Positions 5,599-64,000 of a stretch of DNA of 64,000 nucleotides are shown here, piece after piece (position 1 is the stretch's first letter; each line of letters begins with the position of its first letter). Source of the stretch: an uncultured Acidobacteriota bacterium (GTDB lineage: Bacteria > Acidobacteriota > Terriglobia > Bryobacterales > UBA6623); contig CAWDWB010000007.1 of the NCBI GenBank assembly GCA_963805925.1, positions 485,261-549,260 of the forward strand, in the 5' to 3' direction. The notes beneath the pieces were generated by a model. That model saw only the letters and a list, made by a program, of their open reading frames with translations, did not search any database and was not told the origin of the DNA. The translations under genes were made by a program, and so were the position numbers.

Positions 5599-6849
5599 AT
5601 GCCGCTGTCGGGCTTCGAACGTCGCCAGGGAGAACTTTACTGTGAAGGCGCGTCTTTGTCCGCCATCGCCGAGAAAGCCGGTACGCCCACTTACGTCTAT
5701 TCCGGGACGACGATTCGCGACAACTACCGCAGCTACGCCGCCGCGCTCGCCGGCCTGCCGCACGAGATCCACTACGCCGTCAAAGCCAACTCGTCTCTCG
5801 GCGTCCTCGCGCTGTTAGCTCGCGAAGGGGCCGGTTTCGACATCGTCTCCGGCGGAGAACTCTTCCGCGTCCTGCAAGCGGGAGGCGATCCTGCCCGTGT
5901 CGTGTTCTCCGGCGTCGGCAAGACGCGGCAAGAGATGGTCTATGCCTTGGAGCAGGGAACCGGCTGGTTTAACTGCGAGTCCGAAGCCGAACTTCGCCTG
6001 CTCGCCGAACTCGCCTCCGATGCCGGCGCCGCGCCTTCGGTCGCCCTGCGCGTCAACCCGAACGTCGACGCGGAGACCCACCCATACATCGCCACCGGCC
6101 TCAGCGCTCACAAGTTTGGCATCGACATCGTCGCAGCCGAACGCATCTACCGCCGCGCCGACGAATTCGCGCCGCTGCGCCTGGAAGGCGTGAGTTGCCA
6201 CATCGGCTCACAGATCTTCAACACACAAGCGTTCTTTGACGCCCTCGATCTCGTGCTCGCCCTGATCGAACGCCTCCGCGAAGACGGTGTAGCGATCACC
6301 CAACTCGATCTCGGCGGCGGTCTCGGCGTCGCTTACAAGCCGGCCGATACGACCCCAGTTATCGCCGACTACGCCTCGCGCCTTGCCGCCAATCTCCAAG
6401 GCTGCGGCTTGAAACTCACTCTTGAACCGGGCCGCTCCATCGTCGGCCAAGCAGGCGTGCTGCTCACGCGCGTGCTCTACCGCAAGCCCACCTCTTCCAA
6501 GACGTTTATCGTCGTCGATGCGGCGATGAACGACCTCATCCGTCCCGCACTCTACCAAGCGCATCACGAGATCGTGCCGGTCGTCGACCGCCAGCGCCCC
6601 AGCCTGCGCGCCGACGTCGTCGGCCCGGTGTGTGAAAGCGGAGACTTCCTGGCCAAAGACCGCGACATGCCCGACGTCGAGCCCGGCGAACTGCTGGTCG
6701 CCGCCACCGCCGGAGCGTATGGCTTCGTTCTAGCGTCCAACTACAACGCGCGCCCACGAGCCGCCGAAGTTCTCGTTGAGGGAGACCGCTGGCGCATCAT
6801 CCGCGATCGCGAGTCTTTAGATGATTTGATTCGCGGCGAACGCGTCTAA
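5599..6849 (+). CDS. lysA: Diaminopimelate decarboxylase
   Basis: YAVKAN PLP lysine, HIGSQI, EPGR, GPVCESGD, GAYG..ASNYNARPR. Confidence 0.95.
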   Translation: MPLSGFERRQGELYCEGASLSAIAEKAGTPTYVYSGTTIRDNYRSYAAALAGLPHEIHYAVKANSSLGVLALLAREGAGFDIVSGGELFRVLQAGGDPARVVFSGVGKTRQEMVYALEQGTGWFNCESEAELRLLAELASDAGAAPSVALRVNPNVDAETHPYIATGLSAHKFGIDIVAAERIYRRADEFAPLRLEGVSCHIGSQIFNTQAFFDALDLVLALIERLREDGVAITQLDLGGGLGVAYKPADTTPVIADYASRLAANLQGCGLKLTLEPGRSIVGQAGVLLTRVLYRKPTSSKTFIVVDAAMNDLIRPALYQAHHEIVPVVDRQRPSLRADVVGPVCESGDFLAKDRDMPDVEPGELLVAATAGAYGFVLASNYNARPRAAEVLVEGDRWRIIRDRESLDDLIRGERV

Positions 6850-7679
6850 CCGGCCGCGACCGAGCGGACGGGCAGCAGCGACTTGATCCCTGCCATCACC
6901 GCCAGGACAATGCCAAAGGTGCAGACAATCGCCGGTCCCGTCGGCAGGTCCAACTGCAGCGACGCGTACATGCCCAGGGCCGAAACCAGCGCGCCCATGG
7001 CCCAGCCGACCAGCAAGCGTTTACCGATCGTGTGCGCGAACATCATGCCGCCCACCGATGGCACGATCAGGTAACAAAAAACCAACAGCACGCCGGCGAT
7101 CGACACCGAAGACGTCACCACGATGCCGAATGAACCGTAGAACAGCAAATCCCAGAACTTCACCGACAATCCCGGGACGGAGTCCGCATCGTGGTTCGTC
7201 GAGATGGCCAGGAACTGCTTGCGAAAGATGTAGTGGAAGATGCCGACCAACGAGTATAAGACAGCCGTCTCGCCAACTTGCTGCCAGGTTACGAACAACA
7301 GGTTGCCGACCAACATGTCCTGCAAATGCTGGATCTCGCCCTGCGCTTTGCTCATCGCCAGAATCGTCGCGGCCGAAGCCACCGCATAGCAGATGCCGAT
7401 AATCGCTTCTTGCGGAATGCGAAATCGCTTGCCTCTCACGCTGGCGAAGATCGCGGCGCCGGCTAAAGTGAATCCTACGCTGATCCAGTACGTGCTTCTC
7501 GAATGCGCATCGAAGCCGTTCAGAATGGCCACCGACGCGCCCAGCGCCGCAATTTGAGCCAACGATAAATCGACGAAGATCACTCCCCGTTCAACAACAT
7601 GAACGCCCAAATAGGCGTGAATGCCGACAAGAATCAAGCTCGCCGCGAACGGCGCCGCAAGAAAAACCCATGCGTCCAT
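6846..7679 (-). CDS. Metal (Zn/Mn) ABC-3 type permease
   Basis: Multi-TM; HAYLGVHVVERGVIFVDLSLAQ; GVLLVFCYLIVP; DLPTGPAIV. Confidence 0.85.
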   Translation of the reverse strand: MDAWVFLAAPFAASLILVGIHAYLGVHVVERGVIFVDLSLAQIAALGASVAILNGFDAHSRSTYWISVGFTLAGAAIFASVRGKRFRIPQEAIIGICYAVASAATILAMSKAQGEIQHLQDMLVGNLLFVTWQQVGETAVLYSLVGIFHYIFRKQFLAISTNHDADSVPGLSVKFWDLLFYGSFGIVVTSSVSIAGVLLVFCYLIVPSVGGMMFAHTIGKRLLVGWAMGALVSALGMYASLQLDLPTGPAIVCTFGIVLAVMAGIKSLLPVRSVAAG

Positions 7680-7703
7680 GAATTAGGCCCCTATCACCGG
7701 CGC

Positions 7704-8645
7704 TTACTTGGCCCCCTGGCCCAGTCGCGCAAAAGATGCAGCGACCAAATCGGTGTCGTAGTCGAAAAGCTGTAGATAAGTTTTTACTTGCTCAACGCCG
7801 CCCACCGAGGGCAGCAGCACGATCGCTTCCCCTCCGACAGCATTCGCAATGGCCTTGGGCGTCTTGGAGTCGAAGTAAGGCTCGTACCAGACTTGCTTGA
7901 TGCCCTTCTGCTTCATCAGGTTGATCAATTGAAACGTGTGACTCGGCGAGGGCGGGATGCCTGGTCTCGGCTCCACGTAACCCTGCACGTCAAGACCGAA
8001 CCTCTTGGCGAAATTAGGCCAAGATTGGTGATAAGTAATTACCGATTTCCCTTTGTAAGGGGCCATCTTCGCTTCCCAGCCTTTTTCGGCCGCCGTTAGC
8101 CTCGCGCCGAAATCATCGAAGCGCTGCTGAAAGTAGGCGGCGTCGTCTGGAGACAGTTGAGCCAGCTTCATCTGGATCGAGTGCGCCATAATGCGGCCAT
8201 TTTCCGGATCCAGCCAGTAGTGCGGATTCCCCAGCGGATGCACGTCGCCCATCGCCCGGCTCACCTGTCCCACCGGCTTCAGCAAAATATCCACGCCGGT
8301 TGAAGCGTCCAAGTAACCCGGGGAGCCCGGCTGAATCTTGCTGTTGCGGCTTTGCGTGATCAGCGGCGGCAACCAAGCGATCTCCAACTGCAGGCCTACG
8401 GAAATCAGCAGGTCTGCCCGGTTCAGCTTCACGATGAAGCTCGGCTTGGGCTCGACGAAATGCGGGTCTTGGTAGCCGCGGGCGATGCTCTCTACGTCCA
8501 CGCGATCGCCGCCGACCTCGCGCGTCAGCGCAGCCAAGTCTTCCGTCGCCGTCATCACCCGCAACGAACCCTTCGCCGCCGCCCGGGAAGCGCTCATCGC
8601 TCCGGCAACGGAAGCGGCAAAGAAAGCGCGTCTACTGATGGCCAT
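7704..8645 (-). CDS. Cluster A-I metal-binding protein (ZnuA/TroA family), Tat signal
   Basis: MAISRRAFF Tat motif; QDPHF, GDVHPLGNPHYWLDP, YHQSW, VEPRPGIPPSP. Confidence 0.9.
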   Translation of the reverse strand: MAISRRAFFAASVAGAMSASRAAAKGSLRVMTATEDLAALTREVGGDRVDVESIARGYQDPHFVEPKPSFIVKLNRADLLISVGLQLEIAWLPPLITQSRNSKIQPGSPGYLDASTGVDILLKPVGQVSRAMGDVHPLGNPHYWLDPENGRIMAHSIQMKLAQLSPDDAAYFQQRFDDFGARLTAAEKGWEAKMAPYKGKSVITYHQSWPNFAKRFGLDVQGYVEPRPGIPPSPSHTFQLINLMKQKGIKQVWYEPYFDSKTPKAIANAVGGEAIVLLPSVGGVEQVKTYLQLFDYDTDLVAASFARLGQGAK

Positions 8646-8673
8646 CTGAATCTTTTGCTCCTCTCGATTTCCG

Positions 8674-9915
8674 CTAGAACGGATGCGCTCCATGTGCTCC
8701 GATGGCAAACTGCAATTGCAGCAACAGTTCGTTCGCCCTGATCTGCTCCGCATAGTCCGTCAGCCGGTACTGCGCCCGTATCTGAGCAAACTCGCTGGGC
8801 CAGAAGGTCGCGACCGCCGAGGCGCCCGAATCGTGTCCTTCCCTGTCTAGCCGTTCCGAATAGTCATAGCGCCCGCCGAAGTACCATCGCCGCGCCGTTT
8901 GATAATCCCCCGAGAAATAGTAACCGAAAGCGCCGTTCCGGCCGCTGGGGTCAAATCGCTGTCCCCAGATCATCTCCGACCGCGCGGTAAAGGAATGGTA
9001 GATCGATCGCCGCAGCGGCTTCCAACGGTAGGTGGCGTCGACGCCATACAGCCGGCTGATCGGCGAACCGTCGACCGGTGCATGGCCTCGTGCAAACGAG
9101 ACGCCAAGATCTAAGTTCGAGTCGTCCGTCAGGTCGCTATAACCTCTCAGATGGCCCACGGCGGACAAGTCGCTGCGTCTGGTCGACGCGAAGATATTTT
9201 CCGAATCGCCCCGGAATACCGACCCCGAAGCCTCAAGGAAAATGCTGCCCGGCGACGGCAACAGCCGGCTCACAGTGACTCCGGCGTCGCTCAAGCCTTC
9301 TTCGCCGCCCAGCAAGTTCCCGATCACTAACGGCCGGTCGACCCACGGCAGCACGTGTCGGTGCATCGTGTTCACCTTGCCGAAGGCCGCCCGTTGCTTG
9401 CCGGCCTTGACCAAAAGGTTTCCTGGCAATGCCGGGAAGGTGACGAACGCTTCCTCGACGCCGACTCCCGTCTCTCCGAACGACAGATAGACGTCGGCGC
9501 GTGCATACGGATCAATCGCCGCGCTGAAAGCGACTTCGCTCTCAGCCATCTCAAGCGCGGGAACTGCGTCTACGGCATTCTCTCCGGCGGCGCCGAGCAA
9601 GCTGCCGATCACGCTTACCGCCGGATTCATCAACCGCTGCGACGCCGTCGGATCCGCCGAAACTTGCGCCATCGGCTGCGGCGCCGCTTGCATGGGAGCA
9701 GGAGCGGCTGCCGGTTCGGCGGAGGCCGTCGCCGCGAGCGCGGCCTGTAGTGTGGCGACCTCGGCTTCGAGAGCTTCTAGTCTTTGAGTCAGCGCTTGAA
9801 TCTGGGCGCTTTGATCCGGGGCTTGGCCGAAGGCTGAACAGACAGCCAAAAGTAACAACGCAAAGGCTCGCACGGCCGAGCGGGCTCGAGGATCGGGGTC
9901 GTCGTCACGCGGCAC
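8674..9915 (-). CDS. Putative outer-membrane beta-barrel (porin-like) linked to metal uptake
   Basis: Signal peptide, coiled coil, NPAVSVIG, alternating beta-strands, C-terminal QFAIGAHGAHPF; first gene of the operon with the SBP and permease. Confidence 0.7.
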   Translation of the reverse strand: MPRDDDPDPRARSAVRAFALLLLAVCSAFGQAPDQSAQIQALTQRLEALEAEVATLQAALAATASAEPAAAPAPMQAAPQPMAQVSADPTASQRLMNPAVSVIGSLLGAAGENAVDAVPALEMAESEVAFSAAIDPYARADVYLSFGETGVGVEEAFVTFPALPGNLLVKAGKQRAAFGKVNTMHRHVLPWVDRPLVIGNLLGGEEGLSDAGVTVSRLLPSPGSIFLEASGSVFRGDSENIFASTRRSDLSAVGHLRGYSDLTDDSNLDLGVSFARGHAPVDGSPISRLYGVDATYRWKPLRRSIYHSFTARSEMIWGQRFDPSGRNGAFGYYFSGDYQTARRWYFGGRYDYSERLDREGHDSGASAVATFWPSEFAQIRAQYRLTDYAEQIRANELLLQLQFAIGAHGAHPF

Positions 9916-55157: not shown

Positions 55158-58100
55158 GTGGGTCAGAGCAAGCGGGCGCGCGTCGCCCTGGCGGTTGGGG
55201 GCGTGCTCGTCGCCCTCGTCGTCCTTCTGCTCGCAGTGGTTCACCTGCCGTTTGTCCGTAGCGCGGTGCTCGAACAGGCACGGCAGTTCGCCAATCGTTC
55301 CGGCTTCCAACTCGACGCATCCGATCTCGACTATAACCTGCTCACAGGGGACGTCTCCTTGCAGGGTATTGTCTTGCGGGCGAAAGGAGCGGCCGACGAT
55401 ACGCCCCTGCTGCAGGCCGATCTTCTTCAGGTCAAACTGAGCCTGCGCGAACTGCTGTCCAAGCGGCTGCACATCGAGCAAGGCCATCTTGTAAAGCCGC
55501 AGTTCGCCGCTATCTATCTAGCCGATGGCGGGTCGAATCTTACTGGACCGGCCGAAGATCAGGCGGTCCCCGCCGAGGCGAACGGTCAGCCCCCCCTCGC
55601 CTGGTCCATTGAGCAGTTTTCTCTACAAGACGGATCGATCCTATTGGAGGATCGAGACCTGCCCCTCACCGTAGAGTTGCCCAACTGGTCCCTAGATTTG
55701 TCCGGGGGCAGCGACGGCCGCACCCAGCTAACCTTTGCTTCTGACGAGCCGGGATCGCTTGACTGGAAAGGGCGGCGGAGCGCGGTGGGGAACTTGGCGA
55801 TCGAGGGCTCGCTGAGCGGTCAGGATTTGGACCTGTCCAACATCCAGATCGCCCTGCCGGCGCTGGGCACATCTGGGCGGGGCTCTGTCTTGTTCGGCGG
55901 CGCTCCCGGCGAACTAACCCTCAATTTCGACCTCACTGCCGATGCTGCTCGTCTGGCGGAGTATCTCGAGTTAGACCAGGACATCGCCGGAGCAACAGCC
56001 GTCAATCTGCGCGGCGGAGGTTCCCTGGATTCTATTTCTTTTTCCGTAGAGGCTCAATCGGAATCCTTCCGCTACCGGACTCTTAACAACATGGCCGTCG
56101 ATGTTGCGGCGGGTTGGACGATGGGCGCCGACATCCTCGATTTGCCTCGCGCGAACTTGCGATCCAGTTTCGGCGAGATCAATGCGAGCGGCCAGATTGC
56201 AATTGATGCCGGCGCGACGAGTTCCCTCTCGGCGACGATTCGCGGCCTGCAGCTAGCGCCAATCACGCGCGAGTTTGGGCCTGGCGTTATCGTCGCCAGC
56301 ACAGCTGCGGGCGACGCGGAGTTGAGTTGGCAAGGCACGGACGCCGAGCAATTTATTCGATCGCTGTCGGGCGCCGCCAACCTGCGGCTTTCGCCGACGC
56401 TGTCTTCGCCCCGGCAGAATACCGTACCGCTGGCGGGTACGGTACGCCTGCGCGCCGCTGACGGCCGCAAGACGCTGGGCTTCACTTCGCTCTCGGCCCT
56501 GGCGACTTCTTCGAGCGGCCAACTGCAAGTAGATGCCCAAGAGCGTCTGAGCGGACAGCTGACGATTGCGTCTGTCGATGCCGGAGCTAGCTACTCCGCG
56601 TTGCAAGCATTTTTAGGTGAGCCGGCGGCTGAAGCTCCCCAGATCGGCGGGCGGCTCAATGCGACGGTGGACCTGAGCGGCACGCTCACGAGGCCCCGAG
56701 CGAGCGCCGTCCTTAACGGCGAGGAGCTTGCGGCCGGCGAGATCCGCGACGCCGCGATCGAGATGCGAGCCGACTATCGGGACGGCCAAATCGTCATCGA
56801 GAGCGGCTCCCTCGGTTGGGCCGATCAACGAGCGACGGTCGCCGGTCGCGTTGATCTTGGCGCTTCCCAGACGCAGTTCGATATGACTTTCGACGCCGAG
56901 AGCCTCGATATCGGCGCGATCCGATCGGCAATCGCGAACGAGACGCCGATCGACGGAACACTCACGGCACACGCTTCGCTGGCGGGTACGACGGATTCCC
57001 CGTCGGTTCAGGCGATCGTGTCGACTAACAGCCTCGTTGCCTATGGCCAGCCATTTGGCTCGATGTCCGCCGAATTATCCCTGACGGACGGAGTCGCTCA
57101 TTTGACGCGCTTGCGCGTCGATCAGTCGAACGTCGACGGACAGCCGGGTGAACTATCCGCATCGGGCGAATATCGTTTGGACGACGGACGTTACTCGCTT
57201 GTTGCCGAGGGGCGAAATCTTAGCCTCGAACAACTCCAAATCACCCCACAAGAACGGCTCGGCGGGATTCTGAATTTCCACGTTTCTGGGCAGGGAACGA
57301 CGGACGCTCCCCAGTTGCAAGGGGATGCCTCCCTAGCCGGCTCCACCTACCAGGGGCGCGCCCTTGGCGACCTGCAACTTGAGCTTTCAACACAAGACAA
57401 CCGCGCCCGCATCACGGCGCAAGCAGCCAAGTTCAATGCTGTGCTGAACGCCCAAGTCGATCTCGCCGCTCCCCATGCGGGAACCTTCGAGATCGAACTC
57501 AACAACACCGATCTCAGCCAACTAAAAATTAGCGGGCCGAAGGGCGAACCAGTCTCCGGCACGGTGGCTGCAACGCTCACGGCCCAGGGCGAGATCGACA
57601 ACTGGCAAGACGCCGCCGCCCGACTGGTCGTGCGCGAGGCGAGTGTCCAGGCCGTGGAACGCCTGCCCCTCAAAACGAACGGCGATATCGTCTTGCGTTA
57701 TGAACACCGCACATTAATCGCGGATCAGGCCGCCGTTGCCGTTGGCCATTCCACTTTTGATATCAGCGGTCGCTTGCCCTTGGAGGAGCCAGTTGCCGGA
57801 GATCAATTCGCGATTGGCGGCATTCTCGATCTGAACGAACTAGCCGCTTTCGTTCCTTCTGAGACCCCAGTAGGGGCCAGCGGCCGCGTCGAACTGGATG
57901 CGACGGTCGGCGGGACCCTGACCACGCCGATTCCGGCAGGCGAGGTTCGGCTGTTGGAGGCGGCGGTATTCAATCAGGCCATCTTTAGTCCGATCACGTC
58001 GATCAACGGCACGGTTCGGCTTACCGGCGACACCGTCGAACTCCAGGGGCTGACGGGGGATTGGGCGGGCGCGAAACTCGATCTAAGCGGTTCGGCTCCG

Positions 58101-61100
58101 ATGGCGCTGTTTGGTATCGGCGAAGCTGCAGCGGAGCCGCGACCGATTCGCGCCGACTGGTCCCTCAACGGTCTGGTGATCGACTCCTTGACGGCTCTTC
58201 CGCGCGGCACGGGCGGGAGGGTTAGCCTTGGTGGGCGCCTGGAAGGATTGAAGCCAGAACTCGCAGCGCTGGAAGGGCTCATCACCGTCAGCGAGTTCGA
58301 TGTTCACTACGACGACATCCGCCTAGGCCAAGCGCAGCCCTCCCGCTTGCGCCTCAGCAACGGCGTGTTGACGGTAGATAGTTTTGAACTGACCGGGCCC
58401 AATCTCGAAGCGACGCTGACAGGAGATGTGCAGTTCTCCCCCGAGACGAAACTCAATCTGGACCTCTCTCTCGACACGGACGCCGCTGTCCTGGCGCGCG
58501 TCGTGGACCGCATTTCCGCCACCGGTCCTGTGCGGCTGCGCATCGCTGCACGCGGAGCGCCGAGCGATCCCCAGTTGACCGGCGAGCTGGCTTGGGATCA
58601 CGGCGAGATCGCCTCTTCCCAAGCTGGCCTGGCCGCCCAGGACTTGAACCTGCAACTCGCAATCAAGCCGGGCACGGTCGAAGTGAAGCGCTTCAACGGA
58701 TCTCTAAACGGAGGCAGTCTGGAGGTCGGCGGCAGCTTCGACTATGCCGGCGCCGAACTGACTCGCGTCGATCTCACCGCCAAGGCGGATGCTGTGTTTT
58801 TGGAGATTCCCAAGGGGTTGAGAACGGTCTCCAATACAGATCTCACCATCCGCAGCCAAGACGACAGCATCGTCATCGGCGGTCGCGTCGATGTGGAAGA
58901 GGGCGTATATCGTGAACCGGTGGAGTTCGACTTGTTGTTGTTGGACCTGCTACGCGGCTCCGGCGGCCCGACCGAGTTCGTTACGGAGCCCAACGCTCTG
59001 TTGGCGCGCACTCGTTTCAATGTTGCCGTCCAATCCGTAAATCCCATCGTCGTCGACAACAACATCGCCAAGCTGGGAGCGACGCTCGATTTGCGCCTGA
59101 CGGGCAGCTATTACCGGCCTGGTCTAGTCGGGCGGATGGAGTTAGAGGAAGGCGGCGAACTCTACATCTCGGAGAACCGTTACTTCGTGGACCATGGCGT
59201 GATCGATTTCTTGAATGAAAGTCGCATTCAGCCCTCCCTGGACATCTTGGCCCGCACGAAGGTCCGGAACCAGTACGACATCGAATTGGCGATTACCGGC
59301 GGCGGCGCTGAGCCGGTCGCCACCCAACTCACCTCATCCTCACATCCTGATTTGGCCGAGCCGGACTTGATCTCCTTGCTGTTGACCGGACGCTTGCGTG
59401 AGGAACTCCGCGGAGAAGAAGTCAACGCAGCCGCGGAGCAGTCCCTCTCTTATTTGACTGGCCGCATTGGCGGACGGCTTTCGCGGGCGGCCCAGGATAC
59501 GTTGGGCTTAAGCGAGGTCCGCATCGAGCCCAACCTAATCGCTGCCGAATCCGATCCCGGCGCACGGCTCACCGTCGGCCAAAACCTCAGTTCCGCTCTG
59601 AGCCTGGTCTATTCCATGAACCTCGCTGACAGCTCCGATCAGATCTGGACCGTTCGCTATGACCTCACTCGGCGGTTTCAAGCTCGCGGCGTTCGTCAGG
59701 CGGACAACACGTACCGCTTCGACTTCCAGCACGACGTGCGATTCGGCGGCGGGCAGAACGCCGGCCGGCCGCGCCGCAGTCTGAGGGCCGAACGGTTGAT
59801 CGGCGCCGTCACGGTGGCCGGCGATAACCCGTTGTCCGAGGACGAGATTCTCTCCAAGCTGAAAATCAAGGCGGGTCGTCCTTACGACTTTTTCACCATC
59901 AGCAAAGGCTCCGACAAGATTGAGCAGATGCTTGAAAAGCAGGGCTATCTCGAAGCGAAAGTTTCTATCAAGCGTGAAATGAATGAGGCGACTGTCGACC
60001 TGGTAGTGACCGTCGAGGCGGGGCCGAAGGTCAATCTCATCTATGAGGGCTGGTCGCCGAGCGGCAAATTGCGGAACAAAGTTCGGCAACTTTGGAGCGA
60101 CGGCGTTTTCGACGCCCAACGACTCGACGACGCTCGCCGAGCGATCCTGGAGGAACTGACGGCTCGCGGTTACCTCGCCGCGGAATTTCGCACGGACGTG
60201 ACCGCGAGAGCGGACGGCGAGAAGCGCGTGCTCTTTGAAATTCATCCGAACACGCGTTTCGAAAAGGTGGACCTAGTCTTCGAAGGGGCGAACGCGTTCG
60301 CCAGCAAGGATCTCCGCAAGCGATTGAAGGCGCAAGGGCTGCTCAGCGGCATCTACATCGACTCGAACGATGCGCTCGACTTCTTGCAGAATCTCTATCG
60401 TACCCAGGGTTATTTGGATATCCGGATCGACGCGCCGCGACAGGAGTTGAACGCCGCCGCCCGCACGGCTCAAGTCGTCGTTCCCATTTCTGAAGGCCCG
60501 CAGTACCGTGTCGGAGAACTCACGTTCAGCGGTAACGAGAAGCTGACGGAGCAGCAGTTGCGGGGTGCGGCGAAGCTCACTGCCGGCGCAATCTACAATC
60601 CCCTCCTCTTGCAGGATCTGTACCTTCGCTTGGAAGAAGAATACTGGCGAGCAGGATTTCAGGACGTGGAGCTTACGTTCCGGATGGAGAAGTTGGAAAG
60701 CGAATCGGCAGTCCGAGTCAACGCTGTGATTCAAGAGAATCGCCAGAGCGTCGTCGAACGAATCCAGGTAGCCGGCGCCAAGGCCACGAGCGAAAAACTA
60801 GCGCTCAGCCAGCTCGGAATCGAACCCGGCAAGCCGCTGAACTTCGAGCAGTCTACCAAGGGGCGGCGCGCCCTCTACGATACGGGGGCCTATACGCTGG
60901 TCGACCTGAGCTACAACCCGATTGACGCGCCTGGCGGGCCGCCGGACCCCGGAGTGAAACCCCTTGAGGCGACCTTGAGGCTTCGCGAGGTGCAGCCGTT
61001 CCAGGTTCGTTACGGCGGTTTCTTTGATAGCGAGCATGGCCCAGGGGGCATACTCGACGTTCGCAACCGCAATACCTTGGGCGCGGCCCGCACGATCGGC

Positions 61101-62018
61101 GGGCGCCTGCGGGCCGACGCGGAGTTTCGAGAGGCGCGCCTCTTCTTCAGTCAACCGTTGTTGCGCCGGTTTCCGCTTTCGACCAATTTCGTGACCTTCG
61201 TGTCCAGGACGAAGCGTCCAGGCGAGTTCTTCGACGAGATTGACCATCGCCGCGGCTTCTCGATTTCGCAAGAGACGCGTTGGAAGAATCACTACATACT
61301 CAACTACGGGTATCGCTTCGAGAAGCTCGTTTCCGAACAAGATCCCCCGGACCCATTCTTCCCCGATCCCATTCGCCTGAATGTAGCGCCGTTTACGGTT
61401 TCTTTCACGCGCGAGACGCGCGACAACATTCTGGATGCCAGCCGCGGAGACTTCCTGTCCAACACCTTCGAATGGGCGCCCGCGCAGTTGGGCGGGGACA
61501 GTTCCTTGCATTTCATTCGCTCCTTCAGCCAATACTTCCGCTACTTCCCGCTCAGTGAGCCGTCCGACGCGCCCTTCCGCGGCAAGGCGCAGCGCTCTCG
61601 GTGGGTCTACGCAACCGGTGCGCGCGTCGGCCTGGCTCGCGGGCTTGGCGGCCAAGTCATACCCGATGCCGAGAAGTTCTTCGCAGGCGGCGGCACAACC
61701 GTGCGAGGCTTTGCGCAGGATCAACTCGGCGGTGCGGACTATTACGGTCCTGTCGGCGGCGACGCGGTCTTCGTGCTGAACAACGAACTACGCTTTCCCC
61801 TCCGGTGGATGTTCGATGGCGTAACATTCCTGGATGTCGGCAACGTCTACGACAAGGTCAGCGATTTCAGTTTCACGGACTTGCGAAAATCCGCTGGTCT
61901 TGGGATCCGCGTCAGAACGCCGTTTTTTTTGATTCGAGCCGACTATGGGTTGAAGCTAGATCGACGCCCCGGCGAATCAGCGGGTCAATTCTTCTTCAGT
62001 ATTGGCCAGGCGTTCTAG
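55158..62018 (+). CDS. Fused AsmA/TamB-like periplasmic bridge + POTRA + Omp85 (TamA/BamA-like) beta-barrel, 2286 aa
   Basis: N-terminal TM anchor, long beta-rich repeats, DUF490-like region (VDNNIAKL..DLRLTGS), POTRA repeats (EGPQYRV), FFAGGGTTVRGF, NNELRFP, C-terminal FFFSIGQAF. Confidence 0.88.
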   Translation: MGQSKRARVALAVGGVLVALVVLLLAVVHLPFVRSAVLEQARQFANRSGFQLDASDLDYNLLTGDVSLQGIVLRAKGAADDTPLLQADLLQVKLSLRELLSKRLHIEQGHLVKPQFAAIYLADGGSNLTGPAEDQAVPAEANGQPPLAWSIEQFSLQDGSILLEDRDLPLTVELPNWSLDLSGGSDGRTQLTFASDEPGSLDWKGRRSAVGNLAIEGSLSGQDLDLSNIQIALPALGTSGRGSVLFGGAPGELTLNFDLTADAARLAEYLELDQDIAGATAVNLRGGGSLDSISFSVEAQSESFRYRTLNNMAVDVAAGWTMGADILDLPRANLRSSFGEINASGQIAIDAGATSSLSATIRGLQLAPITREFGPGVIVASTAAGDAELSWQGTDAEQFIRSLSGAANLRLSPTLSSPRQNTVPLAGTVRLRAADGRKTLGFTSLSALATSSSGQLQVDAQERLSGQLTIASVDAGASYSALQAFLGEPAAEAPQIGGRLNATVDLSGTLTRPRASAVLNGEELAAGEIRDAAIEMRADYRDGQIVIESGSLGWADQRATVAGRVDLGASQTQFDMTFDAESLDIGAIRSAIANETPIDGTLTAHASLAGTTDSPSVQAIVSTNSLVAYGQPFGSMSAELSLTDGVAHLTRLRVDQSNVDGQPGELSASGEYRLDDGRYSLVAEGRNLSLEQLQITPQERLGGILNFHVSGQGTTDAPQLQGDASLAGSTYQGRALGDLQLELSTQDNRARITAQAAKFNAVLNAQVDLAAPHAGTFEIELNNTDLSQLKISGPKGEPVSGTVAATLTAQGEIDNWQDAAARLVVREASVQAVERLPLKTNGDIVLRYEHRTLIADQAAVAVGHSTFDISGRLPLEEPVAGDQFAIGGILDLNELAAFVPSETPVGASGRVELDATVGGTLTTPIPAGEVRLLEAAVFNQAIFSPITSINGTVRLTGDTVELQGLTGDWAGAKLDLSGSAPMALFGIGEAAAEPRPIRADWSLNGLVIDSLTALPRGTGGRVSLGGRLEGLKPELAALEGLITVSEFDVHYDDIRLGQAQPSRLRLSNGVLTVDSFELTGPNLEATLTGDVQFSPETKLNLDLSLDTDAAVLARVVDRISATGPVRLRIAARGAPSDPQLTGELAWDHGEIASSQAGLAAQDLNLQLAIKPGTVEVKRFNGSLNGGSLEVGGSFDYAGAELTRVDLTAKADAVFLEIPKGLRTVSNTDLTIRSQDDSIVIGGRVDVEEGVYREPVEFDLLLLDLLRGSGGPTEFVTEPNALLARTRFNVAVQSVNPIVVDNNIAKLGATLDLRLTGSYYRPGLVGRMELEEGGELYISENRYFVDHGVIDFLNESRIQPSLDILARTKVRNQYDIELAITGGGAEPVATQLTSSSHPDLAEPDLISLLLTGRLREELRGEEVNAAAEQSLSYLTGRIGGRLSRAAQDTLGLSEVRIEPNLIAAESDPGARLTVGQNLSSALSLVYSMNLADSSDQIWTVRYDLTRRFQARGVRQADNTYRFDFQHDVRFGGGQNAGRPRRSLRAERLIGAVTVAGDNPLSEDEILSKLKIKAGRPYDFFTISKGSDKIEQMLEKQGYLEAKVSIKREMNEATVDLVVTVEAGPKVNLIYEGWSPSGKLRNKVRQLWSDGVFDAQRLDDARRAILEELTARGYLAAEFRTDVTARADGEKRVLFEIHPNTRFEKVDLVFEGANAFASKDLRKRLKAQGLLSGIYIDSNDALDFLQNLYRTQGYLDIRIDAPRQELNAAARTAQVVVPISEGPQYRVGELTFSGNEKLTEQQLRGAAKLTAGAIYNPLLLQDLYLRLEEEYWRAGFQDVELTFRMEKLESESAVRVNAVIQENRQSVVERIQVAGAKATSEKLALSQLGIEPGKPLNFEQSTKGRRALYDTGAYTLVDLSYNPIDAPGGPPDPGVKPLEATLRLREVQPFQVRYGGFFDSEHGPGGILDVRNRNTLGAARTIGGRLRADAEFREARLFFSQPLLRRFPLSTNFVTFVSRTKRPGEFFDEIDHRRGFSISQETRWKNHYILNYGYRFEKLVSEQDPPDPFFPDPIRLNVAPFTVSFTRETRDNILDASRGDFLSNTFEWAPAQLGGDSSLHFIRSFSQYFRYFPLSEPSDAPFRGKAQRSRWVYATGARVGLARGLGGQVIPDAEKFFAGGGTTVRGFAQDQLGGADYYGPVGGDAVFVLNNELRFPLRWMFDGVTFLDVGNVYDKVSDFSFTDLRKSAGLGIRVRTPFFLIRADYGLKLDRRPGESAGQFFFSIGQAF

Positions 62019-62216
62019 CGATTCCGACGCCACCATCCGGGTTGGTCGAGCGAGAAATCGTCAACGGCGCAAGTCTGACGCCGTCCGGGGTACGCGATCT
62101 TAGCGTACTGGTACCTATCGACGACCATTTCGGTACAGACGGGCTATGGACGATCTGAGGTACATCGGGTCAACTAGGGCTTAGCCTGTCCGGTTGGGTG
62201 GGTTAGAGGAGGAATA

Positions 62217-62666
62217 GTGAACGGGTCTACCGCCAATTCCTGGCATCAGGTCGCACCGCAGGTTGTACGCGAAGTATTCGATGACGAGGTGATCGTCATC
62301 AATATGGAATCCGGCAATTACTTCAGCCTCAACAACACGGGAGCGTTCGTCTGGACTCTTGTTGAGGCCGGTTACGCGGCAGACGGCATCGCTGGCCGAA
62401 TGCGTGACGAATTCGAAGGCGCCGACGCATCCGCGGTCTCAAGCGTGAATGAGCTCCTCGAGCAATTGCTGAAGGAAGGGCTGATTGAGCTCGGAACCGG
62501 GCCCGCTCCTGCTCCATCCCATGTGGCGAGTCCGGCTGCCAAGGGGCCTTTTGAGAAGCCGACGCTGGCGGTCTACACGGACATGCAAGAATTGCTGCTG
62601 CTTGATCCGATTCACGATGTTGACGAAACGGGATGGCCGCAACGTCAAGATGAACCAAAGGCCTAG
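62217..62666 (+). CDS. PqqD-family RiPP recognition element (RRE) with C-terminal peptide extension
   Basis: DEVIVINMESGNYFSLNNTGAFVW...LEQLLKEGLI; Pro/Ala linker; FEKPTLAVYTDMQELLLLDPIHDVDETGWP; GAGGAGG RBS, GTG start. Confidence 0.85.
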   Translation: MNGSTANSWHQVAPQVVREVFDDEVIVINMESGNYFSLNNTGAFVWTLVEAGYAADGIAGRMRDEFEGADASAVSSVNELLEQLLKEGLIELGTGPAPAPSHVASPAAKGPFEKPTLAVYTDMQELLLLDPIHDVDETGWPQRQDEPKA

Positions 62667-63729
62667 CGTCATGCATGACCAGGCGTCTCACCCGGCACGT
62701 GAGTTCGCCCAACAGGCCCAAGTCGTGTTCGGTAAGGCGGCCCGCCGGGCCGGTATAGTTGAGCGGTTCTACAAGATTGCTGGCCAGAAAATTGCGCTGC
62801 GGTTCGCAGGCGAAGCGCTCATTCCGATACTGACCCCTGCTCTCGATCATCTACGATGCCCGCGTTTCGATGACCCTGATCTCAAAGTGTCTCTGTTTGA
62901 CTCCGAGACGACGCAGGTTGTCATGCCGCCGCCGCCCTGGGGGCAAGATTCGTACGGCCCCAACGGGCAGATCGCCGGTTTCAACACCTACGATATTCAG
63001 ACGGTTTACAACGTCGGTACGAGCATCCTGAACGTCATCGACCACGCTGAGAACTCCGCCCTGTTCTGGGTTCGCCGACCGGGTTCGACGCCCTACTGGG
63101 AAACGGCGGCACCTCTGCGAACGATCCTGCACTGGTCGATGCGCGATCGATCCACCCAACTGGTCCACGGCGCGGCCGTCGGTTATGAGACCGGCGGCGT
63201 CTTGATCGCGGCAAGGGGCGGAAGCGGCAAGTCCACTTCTACGCTGAGTTGCCTGGGATCGGATCTGCTGTTTGCCGGGGACGACTATGTGGCCGTTGAC
63301 GACGCCGAGATTCCGTTCGCGCATAGTCTGTTTCAGACCGCGAAATTGAACAAAGACAATCTCTCTCGCATCAGCCACCTCGGTCTCACTCCGGTGAATT
63401 CGGGCCGGCTAAGCGAGGAAGATAAGGCCGTCTTCTTTCCGGGCTCGGTCTACCCGGACAACATCAGTCGAGGGTTTCCGCTCCGCTGCATTTTGATTCC
63501 CCGCGTAACCGGGCGGCCTGACACGTCGATTCGGCCAACCAAGCAGGCCGAAGCCCTACTCAGTCTTGCCCCAACTACCTTGTGTCAATTGCCCGGTTCG
63601 AGCTCTGACTCATTCGATAAGATGCGCTCTTTGACGCGAAAACTGCCCGCATACAGACTGGAGGCCGGATTGGACGTAACCCAGATCCCGCGCGTCATCG
63701 GCAATTTCCTACGGAGTGAGTTCGCATGA
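62650..63729 (+). CDS. HPr-kinase-like P-loop (serine) kinase
   Basis: VHGAAV, Walker A ARGGSGKST, FAGDDYV; overlaps the RRE stop; alternative start 62671. Confidence 0.8.
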   Translation: MNQRPSVMHDQASHPAREFAQQAQVVFGKAARRAGIVERFYKIAGQKIALRFAGEALIPILTPALDHLRCPRFDDPDLKVSLFDSETTQVVMPPPPWGQDSYGPNGQIAGFNTYDIQTVYNVGTSILNVIDHAENSALFWVRRPGSTPYWETAAPLRTILHWSMRDRSTQLVHGAAVGYETGGVLIAARGGSGKSTSTLSCLGSDLLFAGDDYVAVDDAEIPFAHSLFQTAKLNKDNLSRISHLGLTPVNSGRLSEEDKAVFFPGSVYPDNISRGFPLRCILIPRVTGRPDTSIRPTKQAEALLSLAPTTLCQLPGSSSDSFDKMRSLTRKLPAYRLEAGLDVTQIPRVIGNFLRSEFA

Positions 63730-63815
63730 AACTCGAAGTCACGATCATCCGGCGGGCCGTCAGTACGGAGGCCCAGAACTTGCGTGGCCGATTGAGCCTC
63801 GAGGAGTCGGCATGA
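63726..63815 (+). other. 29-aa micro-ORF MKLEVTIIRRAVSTEAQNLRGRLSLEESA with ATGA overlaps at both ends
   Basis: Its ATG overlaps the kinase TGA; its TGA overlaps the GT2 ATG. Confidence 0.45.
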
Positions 63816-64000
63816 GTGAACCCGCCAATCCTCTAGTCAGCGTAATCCTGCCCGTGCACAACGGCGCACGTTACGTCGCCGAGGCGATCCAGAGCGTACT
63901 CGATCAGGAGTATCAGCCGCTCGAGTGCATTGTGGTCGACGATGGCTCAACCGACGCGAGTGCGGACATTGTTGCGAGATATCCGGTGCAGTATATCCGT
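63812..64000 (+). CDS. GT2 glycosyltransferase (partial, runs off the window)
   Basis: MSEPANPLVSVILPVHNGARYVAEAIQSVLDQ...IVVDDGSTD; GAGGAG RBS. Confidence 0.9.
   Translation, partial: MSEPANPLVSVILPVHNGARYVAEAIQSVLDQEYQPLECIVVDDGSTDASADIVARYPVQYIR

Follow-up and report, generated by a model that had tools for sequence, protein, structure and literature searches.

An RRE fused to its own leader-like tail, encoded beside a kinase, a nucleotidyltransferase and glycosyltransferases, points to a widespread peptide- or protein-modification system

What does a RiPP recognition element (RRE; RiPPs are ribosomally synthesised and post-translationally modified peptides) do when its ligand appears to be part of the same polypeptide? 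RREs are usually understood as chaperones that hold a separate precursor peptide. Near the end of the 64,000-nucleotide stretch of DNA analysed here, from an uncultured Acidobacteriota bacterium (hereafter the window; contig CAWDWB010000007.1 of assembly GCA_963805925.1, positions 485,261 to 549,260, or G000:C7:485261-549260 in our labelling), a single gene encodes an RRE, a linker and a leader-like tail, and is followed by genes for a kinase and a glycosyltransferase. We found that this gene set, in its fused form, is a new variant of the phospho-glycosylation systems of the type of linear polyphosphorylated peptides (LPPs) and paeninodins, very widespread and with its chemistry assigned by analogy, pointing to an uncharacterised, widespread peptide- or protein-modification system. 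The contig runs 6.7 kb past the window and then ends; the operon together with this additional sequence carries the label L004, in whose numbering the contig ends at 8950.

The gene occupies 62217..62666 on the forward strand (stop codon included) and starts with GTG, 4 nt behind a Shine-Dalgarno sequence, GAGGAGG, read from the sequence at 62206..62212. Its 149-residue product opens with a PqqD-like winged-helix domain of the RRE type (residues 9-92, 62241..62492), as indicated by Pfam, a profile search of the PDB, Foldseek and AlphaFold2 (AF2). The Pfam match is to PF05402 (PqqD) at residues 24-90 (E 1.1e-13, 51.7 bits against a cut-off of 23.4). Against the PDB, a profile of the domain retrieved the lasso B1 protein TbiB1 (5V1U, E 5.6e-19), then PbaB1 (9X90, E 5.2e-13), TfuB1 (6JX3, E 3.6e-7) and LppB (9X8Z, E 1.1e-6), whereas PqqD structures reached merely E 0.02-0.03. 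Foldseek scored lasso B1 proteins at target-normalised template modelling (TM) values of 0.85-0.90, with TbiB1 at 0.90. AF2, run on an alignment of 112 sequences, gave a predicted local distance difference test (pLDDT) score of 85-96 over the domain and 82 over the whole protein. The RRE is of the lasso-B1 type, and TbiB1 is its closest solved relative. The ESM Atlas returned 'PqqD family' clusters only, and there are no pqqA, pqqB, pqqC or pqqE genes among the genes of L004.

A variable Pro/Ala-rich linker (G93-P111, 62493..62549), with no conserved columns and a length that differs between homologues, joins the RRE to a tail that runs F112-E-K-P-T-L117, A-V, Y120-TDMQELLLLDPIHDVDETGW-P141 and ends in an 8-residue stub. 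Residues F112-P141 (FEKPTL..YTDMQELLLLDPIHDVDETGWP) comprise a leader-like motif of the (F/Y/W)xxPxL type, F112-E-K-P115-T-L117 (62550..62567), marked out by its conservation and by a predicted strand, and a hyperconserved recognition sequence, Y120-P141 (YTDMQELLLLDPIHDVDETGWP, 62574..62639), marked out by invariant residues, a tail-only profile and predicted contacts with the kinase. The C-terminal stub, QRQDEPKA in this copy (residues 142-149, 62640..62663), is variable. Neither Pfam nor NCBIfam scans returned a curated model that describes the tail.

A word-indexed search found 963 homologues of the full-length protein, and most of the 120 listed are 140-160 aa long and cover 85-98% of the query. 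In 112 aligned homologues D122, D130, H133, W140 and P141 are invariant, compared with just E24 and Y35 in the RRE; most invariant columns fall in the tail, and the linker was unalignable with 30 sequences and again with 112. The tail is better conserved than the RRE, independently of the linker and far beyond chance. P115 and L117 are each kept in at least 90% of the 112 sequences. Individual tail positions were scored in 162 of 192 sequences, the remaining 30 having been dropped for misfit to the tail regular expression; in 15 of these the misfit lies at a position that the expression requires, in some of the 15 because the LLLL stretch is substituted. Of the 162, 150 have the (F/Y/W)xxPxL motif (F in 127, Y in 16, W in 7), and 12 are without the aromatic residue. 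The original prediction had described the protein as RRE, Pro/Ala linker and tail, had read FEKPTL as a leader-like motif in cis, and had called for a tail conserved independently of the linker; the first description is exact, and the other two hold across the family.

Hydroxyl-bearing residues of the tail vary more. Position 121 is Thr or Ser in 146 of the 162 sequences, and the 16 exceptions are mostly E, D, N or Q (also A). Thr or Ser occupies position 138 in 126, so that the hydroxyl is missing in 36, and position 120 is Tyr in 130. The stub, 3-20 aa long (median 8), contains Ser or Thr in 90 sequences, roughly as its composition would lead one to expect; neither the stub nor its C-terminal residue is conserved, and we rejected the stub as a universal acceptor, Ser/Thr not being enriched there. 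Two kinds of variant are worth recording. A Nitrospiraceae metagenome-assembled genome (MAG; L083, 10304-10465) has the GWP element duplicated within the tail (…DEKSGWPNVDDKKGWPTRNP…). In Bryobacteraceae and Terriglobia MAGs (L021, L046), tails that read …VYEDMKDLLLLDPIHDVDEQGWP lack the hydroxyls of both positions 121 and 138, and the adjacent kinase retains its Walker A motif, DD site and PPPPW motif.

Searched by itself, as a profile of 42 positions built from 79 sequences, the tail matched 3,099 clusters (50% identity) at E<=1e-3 and 1,869 at E<=1e-10. It is C-terminal in all of the 150 best of the 3,099 clusters, of which 102 are at least 136 aa long and 48 are shorter. Retrieval covered 18 of the 48 short entries together with 4 long ones, 22 in total. 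Because most of the 18 begin within the last RRE helix or the linker, the short tail-only entries look like truncated gene calls. A few database entries of 46-60 aa hold the tail alone. In its own genome, which is 96.6% (96.63%) complete, the full-length protein has a single match, and the tail profile likewise has one match only.

The gene that follows, at 62671..63729 on the forward strand, encodes a P-loop kinase of the HPrK/PEPCK fold (PEPCK, phosphoenolpyruvate carboxykinase), 352 aa long from the ATG at 62671 or 359 aa from an alternative ATG at 62650. The protein has no Pfam match, falling below the PF07475 threshold, and its NCBIfam matches are weak ones to HprK-related kinases at E about 1e-3 (HprK_rel_B, E 8.6e-4). 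In 36 homologues H166, G184, G186, K187, S188, D204 and D205 are invariant, so that the GxxGxGKS Walker A motif is kept along with a His and the DD of the metal site; the N-terminal domain carries a PPPPW motif that is at least 90% conserved. A profile of the 36 homologues matched HPrK/P in the PDB (1KO7, E 3.2e-5), with the match confined to the P-loop region. The AF2 model (pLDDT 95.3) has ATP-dependent PEPCK as its best Foldseek match over both domains (E 1.8e-11, TMq 0.54). The kinase is a divergent P-loop branch, as its score below the Pfam threshold indicates, related to HPrK/P by sequence over the P-loop and to PEPCK by fold.

The first of two family 2 glycosyltransferase (GT2) genes begins 82 nt past the kinase stop, at 63812, crosses the window edge at 64000 and continues on the forward strand to L004 2762 (229 aa; PF00535, E 7e-34). 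Beyond the rest of this gene, the same strand of L004 carries a second GT2, an MsbA-like ABC permease/ATPase exporter and a nucleotidyltransferase (NTase) of PF14907, the 'uncharacterised nucleotidyltransferase' family (E 8.8e-34), whose DxD motif is retained (IVDVDAM here, MHDVDLL in the genome G300). The kinase gene had been described as overlapping the RRE-tail gene within a tightly coupled operon. The overlap (17 nt) exists if the kinase starts at 62650, and the start at 62671 leaves a 4-nt gap instead; the coupling is tight at this first junction and looser at the second. Of the genes that the original prediction proposed to look for downstream, a second GT2, the NTase and an exporter are present; a cyclase and a transglutaminase-like peptidase are absent.

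The same genes recur around the RRE-tail gene elsewhere. We kept 80 loci, 40 of which have full context, with at least 8 kb on either side, and searched them by tblastn with the operon's own proteins (E<=1e-5). The kinase is present in 72/80 loci and 37/40 with full context, a GT2 in 71/80 and 38/40, the PF14907 NTase in 58/80 and 32/40, and the ABC exporter in 33/80 and 14/40. Kinase, GT2 and NTase occur together in 32 of the 40, and in 32 of the 40 the kinase lies directly downstream on the same strand. The expected recurrence of RRE, kinase and glycosyltransferase is thus borne out. ORFs of the 80 loci were clustered from crude calls with a 70-aa minimum, which places smaller genes outside the survey. 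The GT2 cluster has 111 members in 60 loci, about two per locus, and the other recurring accessories are all sugar-related (GT4, SDR/epimerase, AGE-type epimerase, TPR-GT2, sulfotransferase), with a radical-SAM protein in 3 loci. No peptidase or cyclase cluster was found in three or more of the 80 loci at that ORF minimum, and neither Wzx/Wzy-type polymerase or flippase genes nor lipid-carrier genes recur in them.

Relatives are spread over about 20 phyla. In a scan with one genome per species, at least 548 genomes have a relative; by the titles of their records they belong to Acidobacteriota, Pseudomonadota, Bacteroidota, Cyanobacteria, Chloroflexota, Nitrospirota, Planctomycetota, Verrucomicrobiota, Gemmatimonadota, Armatimonadota, Abditibacteriota, Bacillota, Actinomycetota and others. 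Cultured carriers include Rudanella paleaurantiibacter HX-22-17 (L051), Oscillatoria sp. PCC 10802 (L059) and the Abditibacteriota strain IAD-21 (L042). In the window's own phylum a match that reaches the tail was found in 12 of 301 sampled genomes, this one among them; neither of the two genomes sampled from the same order matched, and in the same class the six matching genomes matched in the RRE range only, short of the tail. The distribution within the phylum is therefore patchy.

Structure prediction suggests how the parts of the protein fit together. Modelled alone, residues 111-120 have a pLDDT of 91, with a strand at 117-120, and residues 121-140 reach only 57-69. This agrees with cis docking of the leader motif on the RRE sheet, the strand partner being our inference, and with a tail that does not fold by itself; the model is consistent with the docking of FEKPTL in the RRE cleft for which a structure prediction had been suggested. 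When the protein was modelled together with the adjacent kinase, the complex scored 0.72 (runs 0.71, 0.76 and 0.72), against 0.22 for the best control, with a partner pLDDT of at least 81 and at least 92% of contacts common to the runs. Among solved complexes 58 of 80 reach that mark, and among mismatched pairs 2 of 110 do, counts that apply here only roughly because the prediction used our own alignments. The predicted interface pairs the RRE strands (residues 17-37) and Y120 with the C-terminal helices of the kinase (residues 291-322), and tail residues 122-123, 126-132, 135-136 and 138-143 with kinase residues 84-99, 113-118, 135-139 and 182-183. W140 is predicted to pack on kinase M85, P87 and P88, adjoining W90 of PPPPW. 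When the PDB was searched by sequence with the kinase profile, the entries listed were HPrK/P and P-loop ATPases, none of them named as a complex of kinase and RRE, so the model had no known solved example to recall. The prediction supports binding of the RRE and tail to the adjacent kinase. Given that the conserved tail residues form the predicted kinase interface, and that no tail Ser or Thr is universal, they look like a docking sequence and not like an acceptor site.

We tentatively favour, at a little under an even chance, a reading in which the protein is a self-presenting scaffold that is itself modified. To the observed architecture, conservation, synteny and absence of lasso enzymes this reading adds, by analogy, the protein's part as acceptor and an order of chemical steps, both of which we infer. 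A flexible linker would tether the lasso-B1-type RRE to its own ligand-like peptide, the (F/Y/W)xxPxL leader and the 22-residue, near-invariant recognition sequence, and the leader motif would fill the RRE groove in cis. The RRE-plus-tail module is predicted, with controls, to dock on the adjacent HPrK/PEPCK-fold kinase; in the docked state W140-P141 would pack on the PPPPW region and the RRE sheet on the C-terminal helices of the kinase. The kinase would then phosphorylate the RRE-tail protein, most likely itself the scaffold, probably at T121, T138 or a nearby hydroxyl if present, and the NTase and GT2s would go on to glycosylate it. The product would be kept, or freed by some protease and exported. 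The cassette of kinase, PF14907 NTase, two GT2s and often an MsbA-like exporter is the fused, peptidase-less, multi-phylum counterpart of the phosphorylation and phospho-glycosylation machinery of paeninodin-type lasso peptides and of the LPPs of Bacillota. The scaffold reading is supported by the tightly packed operon, which has no space for or sign of a separate precursor gene, and by the single tail in the genome; the part of substrate is supported by position 121, where Thr or Ser prevails and is otherwise replaced mostly by E, D, N or Q. The invariant catalytic motifs of the kinase, the DxD motif kept by the NTase and the precedent of PsmK and PsmN in pseudomycoidin (PMC6993621) also count in its favour.

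Several observations weigh against the scaffold reading. The invariant positions of the tail hold two Asp, a His, a Trp and a Pro, and no tail hydroxyl is universal, positions 121, 138 and 120 all varying. Just 90 of the 162 stubs contain Ser or Thr, and the stub of this copy contains neither. The kinase P-loop is intact where position 121 is E, D, N, Q or A (L007, L020, L021, L028, L046, L055, L075, L080). The case for cis docking consists of AF2 confidence and secondary structure, and the kinase interface listed above ends at 182-183, just short of the P-loop, with the catalytic residues outside it. A RiPP core more conserved than its enzymes would be atypical. No peptidase recurs in the loci, which leaves peptide release unexplained, the exporter is present in just 14 of the 40 full-context loci, and the chemistry of the cassette is drawn from analogy throughout.

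Some of these observations suit a role that we regard as possible, if doubtful, in which the protein is an adaptor or activator subunit: a domesticated RiPP module without a substrate, whose tail would do no more than dock on and activate the kinase, and perhaps the NTase or the GT2s as well. The acceptor of the enzymes would then be something other than a peptide, for example a sugar, a glycan or a surface-polysaccharide intermediate linked to lipid. The invariant D, D, H, W and P are not phosphorylatable by a Ser/Thr kinase, the hydroxyls are dispensable, and the predicted kinase interface consists of conserved tail residues. In engineered lanthipeptide synthetases, enzyme-fused leader peptides give constitutive activation. 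The best fold match of the kinase over both domains, PEPCK, is a small-molecule kinase; the accessory genes (GT4, epimerases/SDR, AGE-type epimerase, sulfotransferase) are all sugar-related, no peptidase recurs, and capsular polysaccharide loci house LPP and paeninodin clusters, according to the accessible text of Popov et al. (Nat Commun 2026, PMC13381572). That text and the corresponding part of PMC6993621 stand against the adaptor, however, in that every characterised HprK-like kinase of an RRE cluster they describe phosphorylates the precursor peptide. An RRE permanently occupied by its own leader would have no known role beyond peptide presentation; a position 121 that is T/S in 90% of sequences, with mostly acidic or amide exceptions, fits a phospho-site as well as it fits a contact; and neither Wzx/Wzy-type nor lipid-carrier genes recur in the loci. 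We think it unlikely, in a further reading, that the tail is more than a leader and forms the conserved business end of the system, a peptide of fixed sequence held permanently by its own RRE on which kinase, NTase and GT2s would build a phospho-glycan. The product, shared across about 20 phyla, would be either a glycopolymer primed by the protein or a phospho-glycopeptide that is itself conserved, and would act as a signal, a cofactor or a matrix anchor; as in the precursors of pyrroloquinoline quinone (PQQ) and mycofactocin, the modified part of a ribosomal peptide would be more conserved than its enzymes.

If the tail were a pseudo-substrate or placeholder, the protein would be an autoinhibited chaperone, and the tail would give way to the true precursor and real substrate, a peptide whose gene lies elsewhere or is short enough to escape gene calling. 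Discrete precursors with the same [Y/W]xxPxL motif do occur in LPP and lasso systems (PMC13381572, accessible text), the ORF survey of the 80 loci had its 70-aa minimum, and those few 46-60-aa entries hold the tail alone. Yet the genome has one tail-profile match and one full-protein match, the operon leaves no intergenic room for a precursor anywhere from the RRE gene to the NTase gene, the 18 short entries retrieved mostly look like truncated gene calls, and a ligand on a tether, at high effective concentration, would not be displaced easily; we judge this arrangement quite improbable. Very little probability remains for a lasso or other macrocyclic RiPP cluster with its cyclase and peptidase elsewhere in the genome, an account that is largely refuted and with which the 'lasso-type' label of the original prediction falls. 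The RRE is indeed nearest to lasso B1 proteins, paeninodin-type lasso clusters typically carry such a kinase together with an NTase (PMC6993621, PMC13381572), and the genome holds one Asn-synthetase homologue, on contig C10. That gene is AsnB-like, 643-654 aa long, far from the locus and the sole strong PF00733 match, and the genome contains no match to PF13471, the B2-type peptidase. The C10 protein found no match in the 80 loci by tblastn, an approximate comparison, AsnB being remote from the cyclases. Among the ORF clusters of those loci neither a cyclase nor a peptidase recurs, and neither enzyme is among the 8 L004 genes. With 3-20 unconserved residues after the GWP, the stub is too short and variable for a lasso core. 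We rejected a lasso system on the lack of a B2 peptidase in the genome and of a recurrent cyclase or peptidase in the 80 loci.

Around the cassette, other features are more local. Just past it, and also past the window, L004 carries on the same strand a fatty-acid hydroxylase gene (6524-7441; PF04116, a weak OlsE-like match), found in 3/80 loci and 3/40 with full context, and a GlcNAc-2-epimerase/cellobiose-epimerase-like gene (7490-8872), AGE-type epimerases being present in 8/80 and 3/40. A scan of L004 for promoters and terminators gave counts not above those of shuffled sequence. Immediately upstream of the RRE-tail operon, a 2286-aa ORF (55158-62018, forward strand) combines AsmA/DUF748/TamB (residues 4-1526), POTRA (about 1548-1622) and an Omp85 barrel (1972-2286), which makes it a TamB-like protein fused to a TamA/BamA-like one in one polypeptide. 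Among the full-context loci, L039, L062 and L079 have no recognisable kinase within 10 kb of the RRE-tail gene. L062 has two GT2 genes, an unknown 357-aa protein, a GT4 and a giant sulfotransferase-TPR-GT2 protein; in L039 the gene sits beside an ABC/NMT1 transporter and an AMP-binding-PCP-acyltransferase gene, and in L079 its neighbour is an unknown 389-aa protein. A 492-aa open frame in G300 had looked like a fusion of RRE-tail protein and kinase, but the genes there are separate and run kinase, NTase, RRE-tail, GT2.

That an RRE should be joined to its own leader in nature, in an ancient and widespread fusion, alters the picture of RREs. It would imply either single-use, self-presenting substrates or RiPP recognition domesticated for enzyme assembly, and, by analogy, would extend chemistry of the LPP/paeninodin phospho-glycosylation type from Bacillota to about 20 phyla. 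Having neither a peptidase nor a separate precursor that must be tracked down, it would be a simpler test bed, and so conserved and tractable a relative could make the biological role of LPPs and paeninodins testable.

How does the system compare with those already known? The HPr-rel-A models of NCBIfam also combine a PqqD-family chaperone (TIGR04353) with an HprK-related kinase A (TIGR04352) and are likewise uncharacterised. They describe a different family, as our proteins score far under the curated cut-offs (20 bits where 35 is required and 16.7 where 200 is, respectively). The putative substrate of HPr-rel-A is an amphi-Trp domain. The lasso B1 complexes TbiB1-TbiA (5V1U/5V1V) and TfuB1 (6JX3) share the fold, the sequence family and a ligand motif of the YxxPxL type; their ligand is separate, whereas here it is tethered through a linker of about 19 residues and extended by 22 further invariant-like residues. 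In the literature we searched there is no description of an RRE fused to its own leader or of this motif; the supplementary tables of PMC13381572, which lie outside that search, might include fused or non-Bacillota RREs, and its accessible text names fusions solely as laboratory constructs.

The kinases of paeninodin-type clusters, to which the kinase had originally been likened, are an apt analogue. In the accessible text of PMC6993621, an HprK-like kinase (PadeK/PsmK) with a DD site and an uncharacterised DxD NTase (PsmN) lie near a B1-type RRE and an ABC exporter, as here, and in pseudomycoidin PsmK phosphorylates the C-terminal Ser and PsmN is needed for the hexose found on phosphorylated forms. 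Those clusters differ in having a cyclase, a B2 peptidase, a separate precursor and a C-terminal Ser acceptor, none of which is present here.

The closest known system, closer still than paeninodin, is LPP, described from the lpp cluster of Paenibacillus alginolyticus, a member of Bacillota (Popov et al., Nat Commun 2026, PMC13381572; what follows is drawn from its accessible text). That cluster encodes a discrete RRE (LppB), an HprK-like kinase (LppK), an uncharacterised NTP-transferase (LppN), an MsbA-like exporter (LppD), a SipW-like peptidase (LppS) and a separate precursor, whose leader reads YxxPxVLxHQxIxFETxxS and is cut after T-1, and whose core Ser3 is polyphosphorylated. Both systems cluster an HprK-like kinase, an NTP-transferase and an exporter of the MsbA type with the RRE, LppN being a probable member of PF14907. 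The LPP leader has a YxxPx(V/L) motif and then more conserved residues up to an ET; our tail shares with it only the YxxPxL part and a later ET, and FEKPTL matches the pattern type of the RRE-binding motif quoted there, [Y/W]xxPx[L/V/I/F/A]. The glycosyltransferase-rich genomic setting and the patchy phyletic pattern are alike as well. The LPP precursor, however, is a separate protein of 35-200 aa, with a conserved N-terminal leader and a variable core, and its RRE is discrete, whereas here both lie in one ORF, conservation extends over 11 more residues and nothing but the 3-20-aa stub comes after it. LPP has its SipW-like peptidase; here there is no peptidase domain in the 8 L004 genes and none that recurs. 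By profile, our RRE matches TbiB1 (E 5.6e-19) better than LppB (E 1.1e-6). And the core of the present system includes two GT2 genes, and the family extends over about 20 phyla by record titles, in contrast to LPPs and paeninodins, which the same text states to be restricted to Bacillota.

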